Source: a virus (Duplodnaviria; Heunggongvirae; Uroviricota; Caudoviricetes). From it: a stretch of DNA of 7,509 nt. How positions within the stretch are numbered: position 1 is the first letter of the stretch; each line of letters starts with the position of its first letter. The position numbers were made by a program, and so were the translations under genes. Below, one piece after another: positions 755-7,490 of this stretch. Location of the stretch: the IMG/VR virus record IMGVR_UViG_2695420486_000012. The stretch is one strand, 5' to 3'. The notes beneath the pieces are model-generated. The model was not told where the DNA came from. It searched no databases and worked only from the letters and a program-made list of their open reading frames with translations.

Positions 755-3511
755 ATGACAGTAAAAATTTCTGGCGTGCTTAAAGATGGCACAGGAAAAC
801 CAGTACAGAACTGCACCATTGTGCTGAAGGCCAGACGAACCAGCAGCACGATGGTGGTGAACACGGTGGCCTCTGAAAATCCGGATGAAGCCGGACGTTA
901 CAGCATGGATGTTGAGCATGGTCAGTACAGCGTCACCCTGCTGGTTGAAGGTTTTCCGCCTTCACATGCCGGGACCATTACCGTCTATGAAGGTTCCAGA
1001 CCAGGTACGCTGAATGATTTTCTCGGTGCCATGACGGAGGATGATGTCCGACCGGAGGCACTGCGCCGCTTTGAGCAGATGGTGGAAGAGGTGTCACGTA
1101 ACGCCTCCGCGGTTGCACAGAATACGGCAGCCGCGAAAAAATCAGCCAGCGAGGCGGCAACTCATGCAACCGATGCTGCAGCCTCAGCACGTGCCGCCAG
1201 CACGTCAGCCGGACAGGCCGCGTCGTCGGCTCAGTCAGCGTCTTCCAGCGCAGGAACGGCATCGACAAAGGCCCGTGAAGCAGCAAAAAGTGCTGCTGCA
1301 GAGTCATCAAAAAGCGCGGCAGCTACCAGCGCCAGTGCCGCGAAAACGTCAGAAACGAATGCCGCAGCATCACAAAAATCGGCAGCCACTTCTGCATCCA
1401 CAGCGACCACGAAGGCGTCAGAAGCTGCCACCTCGGCACGGGGTGCGGCGGCCTCAAAAGAGGCAGCGAAATCTTCAGAAACGAATGCATCATCAAGTGC
1501 CAGTAGTGCAGCTTCCTCGGCAACGGCGGCAGGAAATTCCGCGAAGGCGGCAAAAACGTCCGAGACGAACGCTAAGTCTTCTGAAACAGCAGCGGGACAG
1601 AGCGCCTCAGCTGCGGCAGGTTCAAAAACAGCGGCTGCATTATCTGCCAGTGCCGCGTCAACAAGTGCCGGGCAGGCCTCAGCCAGTGCCACCGCCGCCG
1701 GAAAATCGGCAGAAAGCGCCGCATCATCCGCTTCAACAGCCACAACGAAGGCTGGCAAAGCCACTGAGCAAGCCACTGCAGCAGCGAGGTCTGCTTCTGC
1801 AGCAAAAACCTCTGAAACAAATGCAAAGACTTCAGCAGACAATGCTGCTTCCTCTAAGGCAGCAGCCGCATCGTCAGCCAGTTCAGCGGCGTCATCGGCA
1901 TCATCTGCGTCTGCTTCAAAAGATGAGGCGACCAGACAAGCGTCAGCAGCGAAAGGTAGTGCCACGACAGCAACAACGAAAGCATCAGAGGCGGCAGGCA
2001 GTGCGACGGCTGCATCTCAGAGCAAAGTTGCTGCTGAATCCGCGGCAACGCGCGCCGAGACAGCAGCAAAACGGGCAGAGGATATTGCATCCGCCGTGGC
2101 GCTGGAGGATGCGAGCACGACGAAAAAGGGGATAGTACAGCTCAGCAGTGCGACCAACAGCACTTCCGAGTCACTGGCGGCAACGCCAAAAGCGGTTAAG
2201 GCGGTAATGGGTGAAACGAACAAGAAAGCGCCCTTAAATAGTCCTGCACTGACCGGAACGCCAACAACACCAACTGCGCGACAGGGAACGAATAATACCC
2301 AAATCGCAAGCACGGCTTTCGTTATGGCTGCGATTGCCGCCCTTGTAGATTCGTCACCTGATGCACTGAACACGCTGAACGAGCTGGCTGCGGCGCTGGG
2401 CAACGACCCGAATTTTGCGACCACCATGACTAACGCGCTTGCGGGTAAGCAACCGAAAGATGCCACCCTGACGGCGCTGGCCGGACTTACTACTGCGGCA
2501 GGCAAGTTTCCGTATTTTACGGGGAATGATGTCGCCAGCCTGGCAACCCTGACAAAAGTCGGGCGGGATATTCTTGCGAAATCGACCGTTGCCGCCGTTA
2601 TCGAATACCTCGGTTTACAGGAAACGGTAAACAAGGCTGGTAACGCCGTTCAGCGTTCCGGCGATAAAATGACCGGAGAACTGAAAATTGGCACGGTGAA
2701 TGCGCTGCGAATTTTCAATGATACCTTCGGTCTAATTTTCCGTCGTTCAGAAGATTTTCTTCATTTCATTCCGACGGCTGAAGGACAAGGCGAAAACGGT
2801 AATATCGGCCCATTAAGGCCATTCGCTATAAATCTGAGAACAGGTGCTATATCTGTCAGCCACGGGGCCAAAATTAAAGGAGGTCTAGCTATTGGAGCTA
2901 CTGATAACGCACTGGGTGAAAACTCCATTGTTCTGGGAGATAACGACACCGGATTTAGGCAAGATGGAGATGGTATTATTAGCTTCTATTCAAATGGTTC
3001 GCGCATCGGACATATTGATGAGTTAGGATTACATCTTTATAAAGATATTGAATCTAATGGCAGCAATTTTAGATTAAAAAGTAATTACCGCCACCACATT
3101 ACATTCGCCAACGAAGACGGAAGAATTCGTATGTTTTTGTGGAAAGATAACGGTGGTGATGGTGTTCATATTAATAACGGTTCAGATGGTGGTGGTGATT
3201 TCATTTTTAAAACAGATGGGGGATTTGCGCTGGGAAGTGGTGCGCAAGTTGCGTCTAGTGGCGATATTTATGGTTCAGTGTGGGAAAACAACTGGTTAAG
3301 CACATGGCTGCATAATCATGTCGTTCGGGATATTCGTCTTGGCAGCATTGAATATAAAAACGTATGGCGCGACTACGGCTTTGGCGATGCGTCAGGTTAT
3401 GTTTTAACAGCCGCAATTAACAGCAATGCGGATGATATTGTCGACACTGTTGCCAGAAGGCCAATTCAGAAATTGATTGGGGGAATATGGTACAACGTGG
3501 GGAGTGTTTAA
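755..3511 (+). CDS. stf: Side tail fibre protein: lambda-Stf-like constant N-terminal part joined to a variable C-terminal host-range domain
   Basis: ORF 755-3511, 918 aa. The N-terminal ~600 aa closely match lambda Stf as recalled ([22 protein letters not shown]..., [66 protein letters not shown]). The central part is an Ala/Ser/Thr-rich repeat region. The C-terminal ~300 aa after the conserved VIEYLGL junction differ from lambda and include a [14 protein letters not shown] motif also present in the - strand stf' segment. Confidence 0.9.
1100..2100 (+). repeat. Low-complexity Ala/Ser/Thr-rich repeat region inside stf (reiterated KTSETNA-type units)
   Basis: Protein-level repeats [12 protein letters not shown] / [11 protein letters not shown] / [15 protein letters not shown] / [15 protein letters not shown], with DNA-level reiteration of aaaacgtcagaaacgaatgc-like units near 1343, 1470, 1553 and 1805. 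This region produces long spurious ORFs in other frames on both strands. Confidence 0.7.
2598..2623. other. Candidate 26-bp invertase crossover site (pixL, gix/cix/hix-like) inside stf at the constant/variable junction
   Basis: TTATCGAATACC-TC-GGTTTACAGGAA. The right half GGTTTACAGGAA matches the gix/hix-type half-site as recalled. It encodes the conserved VIEYLGLQE junction. An inverted partner lies at 7037-7062 (22/26 identical when reverse-complemented). The central dinucleotide TC is at 2610-2611. Confidence 0.6.
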
Positions 3512-3512
3512 G

Positions 3513-4040
3513 ATGATGCACCTGAAAAATATTAAGGCCGGGAATCCGAAAACACCGGAACAATACCAGCTAACTAAAAAAGCGGGCGTGGTATGGCTCT
3601 TTTGCGAAGATGGCAAAAACTGGTATGAGGAACAAAAGAATTTTCAGCCAGACACCATAAAAATTGCTTACGATGAGAACAACATCATCGTTGCTGTCAG
3701 TAAAGACGTTTCAACTATTAATCCTGAAGGGCTAAGCATAGTTGAAGTTCCTGATATTACGGCAAATCGTCACGCAGACAATAACGGAAAATGGATGTTT
3801 CTGGATGGTAAAGTAGTAAAGAGGGAATATACAGAACAGGAACTGCAACAACAGGCCGAATCACAAAAGGCCGCATTGCTTTCCGAAGCTGAATCAGTCA
3901 TCCAGCCGCTGGAACGCGCTGTCAGGCTGAATATGGCGACGGACGAGGAACGCACACGACTGGAAGCATGGGAACGCTACAGTGTTCTGGTCAGCCGTGT
4001 GGATACGGCAAAGCCAGAATGGCCACAAAAGCCTGAGTAA
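3513..4040 (+). CDS. tfa: Tail fibre assembly protein (Tfa chaperone) paired with the expressed stf variable domain
   Basis: The ORF track calls 3477-4040, but that start overlaps stf. The preferred start is ATG ATG at 3513/3516, preceded by ggggag at 3499-3504 and overlapping the stf stop (taa 3509-3511). The C-terminus [25 protein letters not shown] resembles the lambda Tfa C-terminus (EAWKKYRVLLNRVDTS..EWP). The N-terminus is homologous to the - strand tfa' (MxHLKNIxAGNPKTxEQYQLTK...EDGKNW). Confidence 0.85.
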
Positions 4041-4045
4041 AAATT

Positions 4046-4065
4046 AAGGCCCGATATCGGGCCTT
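4046..4065. terminator. Perfect 20-bp palindrome, candidate bidirectional terminator at the convergent tfa / tfa' 3' ends
   Basis: aaggcccgatatcgggcctt is its own reverse complement. It lies 5 bp after the tfa stop, flanked by aaaatt on one side and gtttcatt on the other. Confidence 0.5.
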
Positions 4066-4068
4066 GTT

Positions 4069-4199
4069 TCATTCTGGTTGTTCGGGAAACGTTACTGGCA
4101 GGCTGGAGGTGTCTGTGGATTCGACCTTCTGCGCATAGAGCATCCACTCGGTTAATTTTTGTTTATTCTCGTCGGAAATAATGCCCAGCCGTAGCTGTG
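4069..4199 (-). pseudogene. 3' fragment (~43 codons) of a tfa'-type gene, truncated by the IS element
   Basis: The region 4069-4199 is ~94% identical to 5592-5722, the 3' end of the intact - strand tfa', offset 1523 bp. The homology stops exactly at the IS terminus at 4200. Confidence 0.6.
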
Positions 4200-4242
4200 T
4201 GAGGTGTACTGGCAATAGCGGACACTACCATTTGTTCTTTTT

Positions 4243-5061
4243 TTAAGCAGCCATCTGATGATATTTTTCCCTGAAGGCTGCCGGGGAGATATTCCCCAGA
4301 CGAGAGTGACGACGCTGACGATTGTAGAAAATCTCAATGTATTCCCGTATTACTGAGATGGCTTCATCCCGGTTATTAAAACGATAGTGGCTCAGGCTCT
4401 CATTTTTCAGCGTTCCCCAGAAGCTTTCCATCGGAGCGTTGTCGTAACAGTTACCTTTACGCGACATTGATGTTTTCAGACCAGACTGCTCCTGTATGAC
4501 CCGGTAATCGTATGCGCAGTACTGTGAACCTCGATCAGAGTGGTGGATTAGCCCGGCAGGTGGGCGCTGGCTCCTGAGCGCCATAAACAGGGCTTTACCT
4601 GTCAGCTCTTTTGTCATGCGCTCTCCCATGGCGTAGCCGACAATTTCGCACGTATAAACATCTTTGATGCCAGCGAGGTACAACCATCCCTCCTGTGTGG
4701 CAACATACGTCAGGTCCGCCACCCAGACCTGATTTGGTGCTGTAGGAGCGAACGTCTGGTTCAGCAGATTTGGCGCAACTGGCAGATTGTGGTTCGAGTT
4801 CGTAGTCGCTCTGAACTTGCGTTTCTGCTTACAGCGTAGCCTTAGCTCCTTACGAAGACGTGCCAGTCGGTCACGACCAACGATGATGCCATTCTCTGCC
4901 AGCTCCGTCTGGAGCCGCCGGGTTCCATATGTTTCGCGAGTGCGGATATGTGCCACCTTAATCTCCAGTTTTAGCCGCTCATCACTTTGTTTTCTGTCTG
5001 AGGGTTCATGCTGTACCCAGTTGTAATAACCGCTCCTGGATACACCAAATACCTGACACAT
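4243..5061 (-). CDS. IS3-family transposase OrfB (DDE integrase domain); in vivo the C-terminal part of an OrfAB fusion made by -1 frameshifting
   Basis: 272-aa ORF with rve-type motifs (HSDRGSQY, NAPMESFWGTLK, FYNRQRRHSRLG). The open frame extends upstream to 5160, in the -1 frame relative to orfA. Confidence 0.85.
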   Translation of the reverse strand: MCQVFGVSRSGYYNWVQHEPSDRKQSDERLKLEIKVAHIRTRETYGTRRLQTELAENGIIVGRDRLARLRKELRLRCKQKRKFRATTNSNHNLPVAPNLLNQTFAPTAPNQVWVADLTYVATQEGWLYLAGIKDVYTCEIVGYAMGERMTKELTGKALFMALRSQRPPAGLIHHSDRGSQYCAYDYRVIQEQSGLKTSMSRKGNCYDNAPMESFWGTLKNESLSHYRFNNRDEAISVIREYIEIFYNRQRRHSRLGNISPAAFREKYHQMAA

Positions 5062-5096
5062 CGCTTCAATGGGAAATTGTTGTCGCCATTGTTCGA

Positions 5097-5399
5097 TTAA
5101 CGCGTATTTTTCAGCGACTCCTGTGCAAAATACGCTGTTGCTTTTTTTAATATATCTCGCTCAAGGCGAGCTTCATTTAACGCCTTACGCAGTTGCAGAA
5201 TTTCAGATTCCAGTTCAGCCACCGTGCGGGAACCAGGAGTACCGAGCCCTTTTCTGGCGGCGGTAACCCATTGTCCTAAAGTGCCTTCAGGAAGAGATAA
5301 TCGGGAAGCGCCTTCACTGATCGAAAGTTGATTTTCAAGAACCGTTCTGACAGCTTCGGCTTTGAACTCTTTAGAGTAACGTTGGGTTTTTCTGCTCAT
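5097..5399 (-). CDS. IS3-family transposase OrfA (helix-turn-helix / leucine-zipper DNA-binding subunit)
   Basis: 100-aa [23 protein letters not shown]...[15 protein letters not shown]. aggag Shine-Dalgarno (reverse complement of 5403-5407) upstream of ATG (reverse complement of 5397-5399). Ends just past the slippery heptamer. Confidence 0.85.
5142..5148 (-). other. Programmed -1 ribosomal frameshift site (A AAA AAA G) joining orfA to orfB
   Basis: A run of seven T on the + strand (5142-5148) is A7 followed by G on the coding strand. The orfA frame reads ILKKAT. The -1 frame continues [37 protein letters not shown] into OrfB. Confidence 0.55.
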
Positions 5400-5464
5400 T
5401 ATTAGCTCCTTCTGATGCCATTCTATTTCAGGAAGGAGTGTCCGTTAAACTCAGGCTACCTCAA

Positions 5465-5563
5465 GACGAGGAACGCACACGACTGGAAGCATGGGAACGC
5501 TACAGTGTTCTGGTCAGCCGTGTGGATACGGCAAATCCTGAATGGCCACAAAAGCCTGAATAA
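5465..5563 (+). pseudogene. 3' fragment (32 codons plus stop) of a tfa gene abutting the IS element
   Basis: Encodes [32 protein letters not shown], 96/100 nt identical to tfa 3942-4040. The homology begins immediately at the IS boundary (5464/5465). Confidence 0.65.
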
Positions 5564-5568
5564 AAATT

Positions 5569-5588
5569 AAGGCCCGATAGCGGGCCTT
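5569..5588. terminator. Second copy of the palindromic bidirectional terminator (one mismatch in the loop)
   Basis: aaggcccgatagcgggcctt. Lies between the tfa 3' fragment and the stop of tfa' (reverse complement of 5592-5594). Confidence 0.5.
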
Positions 5589-5591
5589 CTC

Positions 5592-6125
5592 TCATTCTGG
5601 TTGTTCGGGAAACGTTACTGGCAGGCTGGAGGTGTCTGTGGATTCAACCTTCTGCGCATAGAGCATCCACTCGGTTAATTTTTGTTTATTCTCATCGGAA
5701 ATGATGCCCAGCTGTAGCTGAGAGTCCCACAGCTGGGTTTTATCCCTGACGAGCTGCAGCAGGCTCTGCTTTTCATTTTCCGCTTGTTGCCTTTGCTCTT
5801 CCTCGGTATAAGTTCGCTTTATCACCGCACCATCTTTGAACATCCAGTTGCCCGAAATATCAGCCCGGCGATTTGCTGTAATATCAGGCAACTCAACGAC
5901 ACTTAAACCTTCTGGATTAATTGCTGATACATCCTTGTCTATAGCAATAATTATTCCCTCAACTGTGTAAGCCAGTTTTATTGTATCCTCCTGAAAGTTT
6001 TTTAATTCCTCATGCCAATTTTTTCCATCTTCGGACCATAACCAGATAACATCAAAATTCTTTGTTAGCTGGTATTGTTCAACGGTTTTTGGATTACCTG
6101 CGACAATGTTTTTTAAATGCTGCAT
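5592..6125 (-). CDS. tfa: Tail fibre assembly protein of the alternative (silent-orientation) cassette
   Basis: 177-aa [40 protein letters not shown]... The N-terminal half is homologous to + strand Tfa and the C-terminal half diverges. The ATG lies 2 nt after the taa that ends the stf' frame, the same arrangement as stf/tfa on the + strand. Confidence 0.85.
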
Positions 6126-6127
6126 GA

Positions 6128-7048
6128 TTATACCTGCGATACGTTATACCATGTTCCGTTAATTAACTTTTGTATTGGTCTGAATACTGCCGGATCATCA
6201 CCATCGACTTCACCGATAATACCAAGCCCCGTGATTACATGGCCTGATTTTTCATACATCACGCCTTTCTTCATGGTCTAAACAACTCGTGTGCCAAGTC
6301 TGACATCTCTCACATAGCGGGAATCAAAGTTACCGTAATCCGAGGGATTAACACGTCCCGTAATATTTATGGTTTTATTACTTTGAATGCTTCCGGAGAC
6401 AAAGCGCATAACATGGACGTTATTAGCATAAACATCCAGATTACCATCGCCTTTTTGTTTAAAGCCCGTGTCATTATCACCCAATACAATCGAATTACCG
6501 CCAAGAGCACTGGATGTTCCGATACCCAGTGCACCATTCAGTTGACCACCAGATAACGGCAGTGCACCAACATCTCCTGCTGAAGGTTTTCTGGTGGTGT
6601 AAAATTCGGACCAGTCGGCTTCAAAACCATAACCATCACGGGCTGAACGATAAAAAATACCGCCATTTTTATAATTAATCCGAAACTGAGCTGCAGGACA
6701 ACTTCCTTCTCCCATATAAAAATGAATAATTAACGTTGATGCACCACTAATAGTTGCGTTATAGGCTCCGCTACTCCAGTTCCATCCAACTGCTTTATCA
6801 TTCGCAACGGTGCTTCCTGTTTTCCCTAAGGCAAACGCACCAACATGACTTGCTTTTAATGTGATATCGGAGGAACCATCAAAAGCCACATTGCTTATTT
6901 TCCTGGCAGTTTTTAATTTTGCAGCTGTAGAAGCATTGCCGGATAGTTCACCAGAAAGGCCACCGCTGAATGTTTGTCGATTAGTCCAGGTATTCGCTGT
7001 ACTGAGTAACGGTATTTTCTCCCCGCTTGTGCCGAGTTCTCGTAAACC
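6128..7048 (-). pseudogene. Alternative tail-fibre C-terminal variable segment (stf', promoterless and lacking its own N-terminus), interrupted by an in-frame TAG
   Basis: The - strand frame is open from the pixR crossover site (7048) to a TAG at 6278-6280 (GLRELGTSGEKIPLLSTANTWTNRQTFSGGLSGELSG...[20 protein letters not shown]...YVRDVRLGTRVV*). The same frame then continues for 49 codons (TMKKGVMYEKSG...[20 protein letters not shown]) to a taa at 6128-6130. That tail is homologous to the Stf C-terminus ...[19 protein letters not shown]. The frame would be continuous with the stf constant part after inversion at pixL/pixR. Confidence 0.65.
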
Positions 7049-7062
7049 GAGGTTTTAGATAA
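7037..7062. other. Candidate 26-bp invertase crossover site (pixR), inverted relative to pixL
   Basis: TTCTCGTAAACC-GA-GGTTTTAGATAA, about 23/26 match to the gix-type consensus TTCCTGTAAACCGAGGTTTTGGATAA as recalled. Located ~55 bp upstream of the pin start, as in Gin/Cin/Pin systems. Confidence 0.6.
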
Positions 7063-7116
7063 TGGCGGTTTCTGGCCTGCATGGCATGATTTGTGCTTTT
7101 GGACGGGAGATTCAGC

Positions 7117-7353
7117 GTGCTGATTGGCTATGTAAGGGTATCAACAAATGACCAGAATACAGACCTGCAACGAAACGCTCTTGTTTGTGCAGGATATGAA
7201 CAAATATTTGAAGATAAATTAAGCGGAACAAGGACAGGCCGACCTGGATTAAAACGTGCTTTAAAGCGCCTTCAAAAAGGTGACGCACTGGTTGTCTGAA
7301 AACTGGACTGACTGGGTCACTGTATGCGGCATCTTGTCGTGCTGGTGGTGGAA
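7117..7353 (+). pseudogene. pin: Pin/Gin/Cin/Hin-family serine DNA invertase, 5' portion only; in-frame TGA after codon 60, second TGA four codons later, 3' two-thirds missing
   Basis: GTG at 7117 preceded by gggaga (7104-7109). Encodes MLIGYVRVSTNDQNTDLQRNALVCAGYEQIFEDKLSGTRTGRPGLKRALKRLQKGDALVV, which matches the invertase N-terminus including the catalytic Ser in YVRVSTNDQ. Then TGA (7297-7299) where the family has Trp. The same frame reads KLD*LGHCMRHLVVLVVE, recognisably the VVWKLDRLGRSMKHLISLVGE region. The resolvase-fold remainder and the C-terminal HTH are absent. Confidence 0.75.
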
Positions 7354-7443
7354 GCCTAGAAAAAGTATCGGGTGTTGCTGAACCGTGTTGATACATCAAC
7401 TGCACCTGATATTGAGTGGCCTACGAACCCTGTCAGGGAGTAA
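7354..7443 (+). pseudogene. Lambda-Tfa-like 3' fragment fused in frame to the pin remnant, with a TAG at the conserved Trp position
   Basis: Frame reads [28 protein letters not shown], versus lambda Tfa C-terminus [24 protein letters not shown] as recalled. TAG at 7357-7359, final taa at 7441-7443. Confidence 0.6.
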
Positions 7444-7457
7444 TCATTGGGATTATG

Positions 7458-7490
7458 CCGCAGCACGTCTTAAGCAAGAACGTGCTGCGG
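7458..7490 (+). terminator. Stem-loop (11-bp perfect stem) downstream of the tfa-like fragment; possible terminator
   Basis: ccgcagcacgt (7458-7468) pairs with acgtgctgcgg (7480-7490) across an 11-nt loop. A T-run (tatttttt, 7499-7506) follows after an 8-nt spacer, so terminator function is uncertain. Confidence 0.35.

Follow-up and report, generated by a model that had tools for sequence, protein, structure and literature searches.

The alternative tail-fibre cassette described here, stf', is best explained as a silent cassette that has been inactivated by a nonsense mutation and has become a pseudogene, with the 49 codons behind its premature TAG being the orphaned end of the same gene; we give this reading a probability of about 0.9. 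The whole stretch of DNA that was analysed, hereafter the window, is 7,509 nucleotides in length and corresponds with high confidence to the tail-fibre end of a lambdoid prophage of Shigella sonnei that has degraded and that sits by the trp operon; in the S. sonnei genomes that have matching loci the prophage is found beside trpCBA. Related S. sonnei loci have a split J gene and a prophage interrupted by further IS elements.

The window begins with lom (4-603), which is followed on the + strand by stf (755-3511), encoding the expressed side tail fibre of 918 amino acids in which a constant N-terminus is joined to a variable C-terminal cassette (Pfam phage_tail_N, E 3.6e-69, and gp37_trimer), and by tfa (3513-4040, + strand), the assembly chaperone of the expressed cassette (Pfam Caudo_TAP, PF02413, E 1.7e-36). 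Part of stf (1130-1831, + strand) encodes a repetitive shaft rich in Ala, Ser and Thr in which a 33-nt unit (AAKTSETNA-like) recurs in six loose copies, and these repeats yield spurious long ORFs of 244, 364 and 205 aa in other frames or on the opposite strand. The second cassette lies on the - strand and consists of the truncated body of stf' (6281-7048), which contains a Pfam gp37_C domain and is promoterless in its present orientation, and of tfa' (5592-6125), an intact chaperone gene of 177 aa (Pfam Caudo_TAP, PF02413, E 4.8e-34). The two pairs are therefore convergent, each cassette having its own Tfa.

The segment that contains both cassettes is bounded by an inverted repeat of 32 nt that is 84% complementary, the left copy (2592-2623, + strand) lying inside stf (...IEYLGL|QE...) and the right copy (7037-7068, - strand) at the 5' end of stf'. 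That these are paired crossover sites is borne out by two S. sonnei loci (L010 and L011) that are inverted exactly between them; we also take the sites to resemble the gix/cix consensus. An intact invertase gene does not adjoin the segment. What is found instead is the remnant of a Pin/Gin-type serine invertase of 68 codons (7093-7299, + strand) that covers positions 2-69 of the 145 in the Pfam Resolvase profile and then stops, and the same stump is present in relatives, where it is annotated as a 60-aa or partial 'recombinase family protein'. Downstream of the stump there is a tfa-like fragment (7349-7463) that is ~90% identical to another tfa fragment of S. sonnei loci, and in E. coli relatives the next gene after the stump is one for a SAM-dependent methyltransferase; a rearrangement, rather than a point mutation, seems to have cut the invertase short. 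The locus is thus a disabled member of the Din-type invertible tail-fibre segments.

Despite the stump, S. sonnei genomes are found with the segment in either orientation. In S. sonnei CP044151.1 (L011) the flipped segment places the TAG cassette in the expression site, where it is fused in frame to give an 875-aa fibre that terminates at the TAG, so that not every strain shields the TAG allele strictly from selection. Furthermore the overlapping ends of a single NCTC contig, UGZB01000001.1 (L009 and L010), differ in orientation, which hints that inversion may be ongoing, with an invertase presumably encoded elsewhere and acting in trans. In the window itself a promoter scan found no promoter-like site upstream of the stf' cassette on the - strand, a result that any silent cassette would be expected to give and that is not strong evidence.

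A copy of IS600, of the IS3 family, has inserted within the invertible segment (4198-5464, - strand; orfA 5097-5399, orfB 4243-5061; Pfam HTH_Tnp_1 and rve) and is 99.9% identical to elements annotated as 'IS3-like element IS600 family transposase'. It separates the convergent tfa and tfa' and is flanked not by the usual 3-bp target duplication but by a direct repeat of 256 nt, the left copy of which (3942-4197) contains the 3' end of tfa, a hairpin and the 3' end of a tfa' copy, and the right copy of which (5465-5720) contains a 3' fragment of tfa, the hairpin and the 3' end of tfa' proper. The two copies differ at 10 sites (96% identity), and positions 3938-4190 differ at 12 sites from the corresponding locus of S. 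sonnei 53G (L007), which has no IS here. The long flanking repeat, together with the divergence of its left copy from 53G, suggests IS-mediated recombination or gene conversion at IS600 with a second, related prophage. The GC-rich hairpin, AAGGCCCGATA[T/G]CGGGCCTT, is present twice between the convergent tfa genes (4046-4065 and 5569-5588) because of this duplication, and looks like a bidirectional terminator.

The frame of stf', translated on the - strand from 7048 to 6128, opens near the crossover site at ~7048 as GLRELGTSGEK and runs for 256 codons before the TAG. It reads GLRELGTSGEKIPLL...NPSDYGNFDSRYVRDVRLGTRVV up to the TAG at 6278-6280 (- strand), the last residues before the stop being YVRDVRLGTRVV, so that the body ends ...RLGTRVV. 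Behind the TAG the same frame holds 49 sense codons (6131-6277) and is closed by a TAA at 6128-6130, making the orphaned 3' end, with the ancestral TAA, 6128-6277 on the - strand. The junction with tfa' then reads gta taa tc atg, the ATG of tfa' being at 6125-6123 after a spacer of 2 nt, and on the + strand stf and tfa are joined by TAA G ATG with a spacer of 1 nt. An earlier, sequence-only reading of the locus had described this in-frame TAG with its 49 following codons, had likened the tail to the true C-terminus of Stf and had held the two fibre-chaperone junctions to be alike. All of this stands: translation of the - strand gives the stop and the tail as described, the motif RPIQKLI(G/N)G(I/T)WYNV is common to the stf' tail and the C-terminus of the expressed Stf, and spacers of 2 nt and 1 nt are essentially the same arrangement. 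An open stretch of 49 codons has a chance probability of about 0.09 given the base composition and is not significant alone; it is homology, rather than length, that places the tail beyond chance, as all 49 residues are matched in an intact E. coli homologue (L001) and it aligns to the last residues of the Mu fibre.

The nature of the TAG is revealed by intact relatives, which have CAG (Gln) at this position and a frame that runs on to ...NGTWYNVxxV. One of these is found in E. coli NZ_OZ040035.1 (L001), whose copy of the cassette, 98.7% identical in nucleotides, is oriented for expression and fused to the fibre N-terminus as a single intact CDS. It has CAG at the column in an otherwise identical context, the stop codon of the window differing from it by one base at position 6280, and the two tails are identical at 49/49 amino acids, with one further nucleotide difference beyond the stop that is synonymous. 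A more distant relative, the fibre of a P2-like prophage (L002, 87.7% nucleotide identity), also has Gln at the column and ends ...RLGTRVVQTMQKGVMYEKSGHV...NGTWYNVAQV, with a Tfa gene behind it. Judged from these comparisons, the lesion is to be read as one C-to-T transition at window position 6280, which on the coding strand changed CAG to TAG.

The same picture emerges from wider searches. A protein search returned 78 homologues, none of which ends at the TAG column; 61 of them span it and every one of the 61 has a sense residue there, Gln in 36, Asn in 7, Lys in 6 and others in 12. When phage genomes were searched with the last 123 aa of stf', with Gln entered at the position of the stop, 80 records covered at least 80% of the query, and the best matches, the H fibres of P2-like phages, were 93-95% identical over all 123 aa in single uninterrupted alignments. 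The S fibre of P1, Sv' of P7 and the fibres of Mu and SfMu likewise match through the TAG position to the last residue. In the orthologues, then, a sense codon takes the place of the stop and the frame stays open as far as a conserved end, and the proposal of the sequence-only reading, that the TAG is a nonsense mutation about 50 codons before the ancestral end, is upheld, with Gln as the residue that occupied the position.

The part of the fibre that lies behind the stop is also the part that is most conserved. In an alignment of 33 homologues, numbered by the homologue P0003 with the Gln of the stop column as residue 167, four columns are invariant and three of these, Q203, W210 and Y211, are downstream of the TAG position, as are ten nearly invariant columns between G179 and V213 that include R200, P201, K204, I206, N207, N212 and V213. 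The family's most conserved motif, which is terminal, near-invariant and begins R-P, is present in the stf' frame of the window only behind the TAG, and truncation therefore costs the fibre residues that the family as a whole conserves. The read-through product of stf' matches the fibre S of Mu (5yvq_A, E 5e-16) over residues 424-502 of 504, an alignment that spans the TAG position and in which the orphaned tail corresponds to residues ~450-502; the match of stf' to the Mu S/S' entry 8ju3_A is stronger still (E 8e-55). This C-terminal homology, terminal motif included, identifies the region as a tip module of the Mu S / P2 H / lambda Stf type.

An AlphaFold model of a homologue that is 94% identical places three strands behind the Gln (E180-185, E195-206 and E209-212), in a part of the model where pLDDT is at its best, about 80-89, and the folds that it matches best are those of the Mu fibre, 8JU3 and 5YVQ, with low TM-scores. 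As a monomer of a trimeric fibre with a mean pLDDT of 68 (pTM 0.32) the model is only indicative, and it was used for the strands after the stop and the relationship with Mu fibres, not for the relative stability of fused and truncated forms. On this basis the tip of the mutant fibre would be without its final three or four beta-strands and without the most conserved motif of the family.

Fibres of this class trimerise only with Tfa acting at their C-terminal end, and in the solved fibre-chaperone complex of Mu the region that corresponds to the lost tail is part of the distal tip, where the Tfa chaperone binds. In the same vein, a passage of PMC9608196 that cites North et al. 2019 describes Mu Tfa as binding the distal part of the fibre, staying on it and being needed for correct assembly and trimerisation. 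Since Tfa acts at the C-terminal tip and it is this tip that truncation removes, a Stf' that ends ...RLGTRVV would be expected to be unable to fold by means of Tfa' or to bind a receptor.

The TAG is also found close to a border between modules. Many E. coli fibres, for example from ST131 (L003), share 98.4% identity with stf' as far as ~6294 on the - strand and then switch to another tip and another Tfa, producing a sharp mosaic breakpoint at the motif SRYV(R/K)DVRLG, ~15 nt upstream of the TAG. This switch marks the motif as the module border and the last ~55 codons together with tfa behave as an exchangeable module; the TAG would consequently take away essentially the entire exchangeable tip.

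The stop is present in every S. sonnei locus that was read. Positions 6100-7100 of the window are 100% identical to eight S. sonnei loci and 99.7% identical to two more, including that of 53G (HE616528.1), and TAG is present in all ten, which come from independent assemblies with finished genomes among them. In an exact-protein look-up the 48-aa and 203-aa ORFs that flank the stop were each found on at least 1000 contigs, including those of strain Ss046, in which the 203-aa ORF is entered as Q3Z104_SHISS and annotated 'bacteriophage tail protein'. A scan of species-representative genomes for the exact pattern around the stop (GGCACACGAGTTGTTNAGACCATGAAGAAAGG) gave no match, and these genomes evidently do not have the TAG allele. 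No record among complete E. coli genomes covers at least 80% of the whole window, which is consistent with a Shigella origin.

It could be argued that the TAG is a sequencing or assembly error that the real genome does not contain, as only one base differs from close relatives, however its recurrence in the ten independent S. sonnei loci, finished genomes included, and that of the flanking ORFs on so many contigs, has led us to reject this explanation, to which virtually no probability attaches. The same fate befalls the suggestion that the stop is ancestral, that is, that this type of fibre naturally ends ...RLGTRVV and has a conserved small gene behind it. The proximity of the TAG to the module border, where E. 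coli fibres that are ~98% identical as far as ~6294 switch tips, would suit a natural end, but each alternative tip forms one reading frame with the body, both in the ST131 fibre and in the alignment of 33 homologues, and none of the 61 spanning homologues stops at the column. The finding that would have counted against a nonsense mutation in the sequence-only reading, homologues that terminate here and have a conserved small ORF downstream, was thus not made, and the chance that the stop is ancestral is close to nil. The sequence-only reading had also raised the idea of a suppressible amber, and a programmed readthrough site would have the same effect, with the TAG being decoded usefully through a suppressor tRNA or its context so that full-length Stf' is made. 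The codon is indeed TAG, the ancestral residue is Gln and the 49 downstream codons are still intact; at a TAG that was once a Gln codon, the wild-type protein would be recovered with a glnV-type (supE) suppressor or if tRNA-Gln decoded the codon as a near-cognate. Against this, there is no tRNA gene within the 7.5-kb window, the stop is confined to the S. sonnei allele with all other homologues having sense codons, so that homologues which retain the downstream extension do not share the stop, as they would be expected to at a recoding site, and the cassette is promoterless in its present orientation within a prophage that is otherwise degraded. Low basal readthrough would furthermore give negligible product, as a trimeric fibre requires three full-length chains, and useful decoding of the TAG is accordingly regarded as highly improbable.

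The ATG that forms the second codon behind the TAG opens an ORF of 48 aa (6128-6274, - strand), which is how gene callers list the orphaned end of stf', and it had been proposed that the tail might be expressed from it as a separate peptide; such a tip peptide, translated alone from the ATG at 6274, could perhaps complement the fibre together with Tfa'. The ATG is near enough to the TAG that terminating ribosomes could in principle reinitiate, and in S. sonnei the ORF is annotated as a 'putative tail fiber protein (GpH)'. However intact fibres conserve the Met in question as an internal residue, in the motif QTM(K/Q)KG, and it is therefore not a new start; its predicted Shine-Dalgarno pairing is -2.5 kcal/mol, compared with -8.3 for tfa; the ORF has no Pfam domain of its own; and, among the homologues found, free-standing small genes occur only as fragments or as partial genes at contig ends. 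When the lack of a promoter-like site upstream on the - strand is also considered, a split gene of this kind is very unlikely. Finally, since the flipped segment brings the TAG allele into the expression site in CP044151.1, it could be proposed that S. sonnei has retained the allele for its usefulness, the product being a tip-less fibre of 875 aa, or a split or low-dose fibre, with a role that benefits the host. Were this so, a split or low-dose fibre could arise by reinitiation at the ATG or by readthrough that restores Gln, and the possible roles would include those of a decoy, a tailocin-like function or a function at the surface; we consider it scarcely credible.

Returning to the preferred reading, of a pseudogene that arose by decay, the locus has clear counterparts amongst known phages. 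In having two convergent cassettes, each with a fibre C-terminus and a Tfa, it resembles the G segment of Mu (S/U, S'/U', Gin), the C segment of P1 and P7 (Cin), the P segment of e14 in K-12 (Pin) and the B segment of Shigella boydii (PinB). Segments of the Din family also share its short inverted crossover sites, one of which is in the fibre gene, the in-frame fusion that results from a flip and the adjoining gene of the resolvase type, and the fibre tip is homologous to those of Mu S/S', P1 S and P7 Sv'. Unlike these systems, the host element of the window is a lambdoid prophage (with Lom, J and a Stf of the phage_tail_N type), the invertase has been reduced to its stump of 68 codons, IS600 sits within the segment and one cassette has a premature stop.

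At the level of the fibre tip the nearest likeness is with the H proteins of P2-like phages (Peduovirus), such as vB_EcoM-569R9, P2_AC1 and Yersinia phage vB_YpM_50, which share the 93-95% identity over the last 123 aa noted above and the same C-terminus followed by Tfa; in these phages, in contrast to the window, Gln is present at the stop and the intact module is borne on a P2-type shaft outside any invertible segment. Homology to the Mu S-Tfa (U) complex 5YVQ (North et al. 2019) and to 8JU3 likewise extends across the TAG to the last residues; identity in the tip is only about 40-50%, and these structures represent another tip type. A parallel for the lesion itself is found in stf of lambda PaPa, where a point lesion also splits a lambdoid side-tail-fibre gene into two ORFs and the downstream coding sequence is still recognisable; according to a passage in PMC9608196 that cites Hendrix & Duda 1992, this frameshift abolishes the fibre. 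The two cases differ in that lambda PaPa has a frameshift in an expressed gene of a viable phage, whereas the window has a nonsense mutation in a silent cassette of a defective prophage.

The course of events that we favour would begin with an invertible segment of the Mu G / P1 C / e14 P type, with two convergent cassettes, in a lambdoid prophage of S. sonnei. In the silent cassette a C-to-T change would have turned the Gln codon CAG into TAG, 50 codons before the natural stop, and any truncated fibre made from it would lose its tip strands and conserved motif and with them its folding or receptor binding. The TAG would then be one among several marks of neutral decay, the others being IS600, the truncated invertase and the loss of a Thr codon from stf', which through a 3-nt deletion at ~6600 reads EFYTT-RKP where L001, L002 and L003 have EFYTTTRKP. 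A further change that sets stf' apart from the same three relatives is that of Asn to Lys (FKQKGDG, ~6452). Given that the tail has only one more change relative to L001, and that a synonymous one, either the mutation is recent or drift is slow; the intact tail is compatible with decay but is no proof of it.

What is described here is an ordinary pseudogene in a system of a well-known kind, the product of gene decay and not of a new mechanism. In practical terms, the entries of 203 aa and 48 aa in S. sonnei genomes are the two halves of one cassette that was broken by a change of CAG to TAG, and should be annotated as a single pseudogene. The locus adds one more case to the decay of Shigella prophages, with little wider importance and no new biological question attached to it, and the C-to-T change at 6280 could act as a marker of the lineage.
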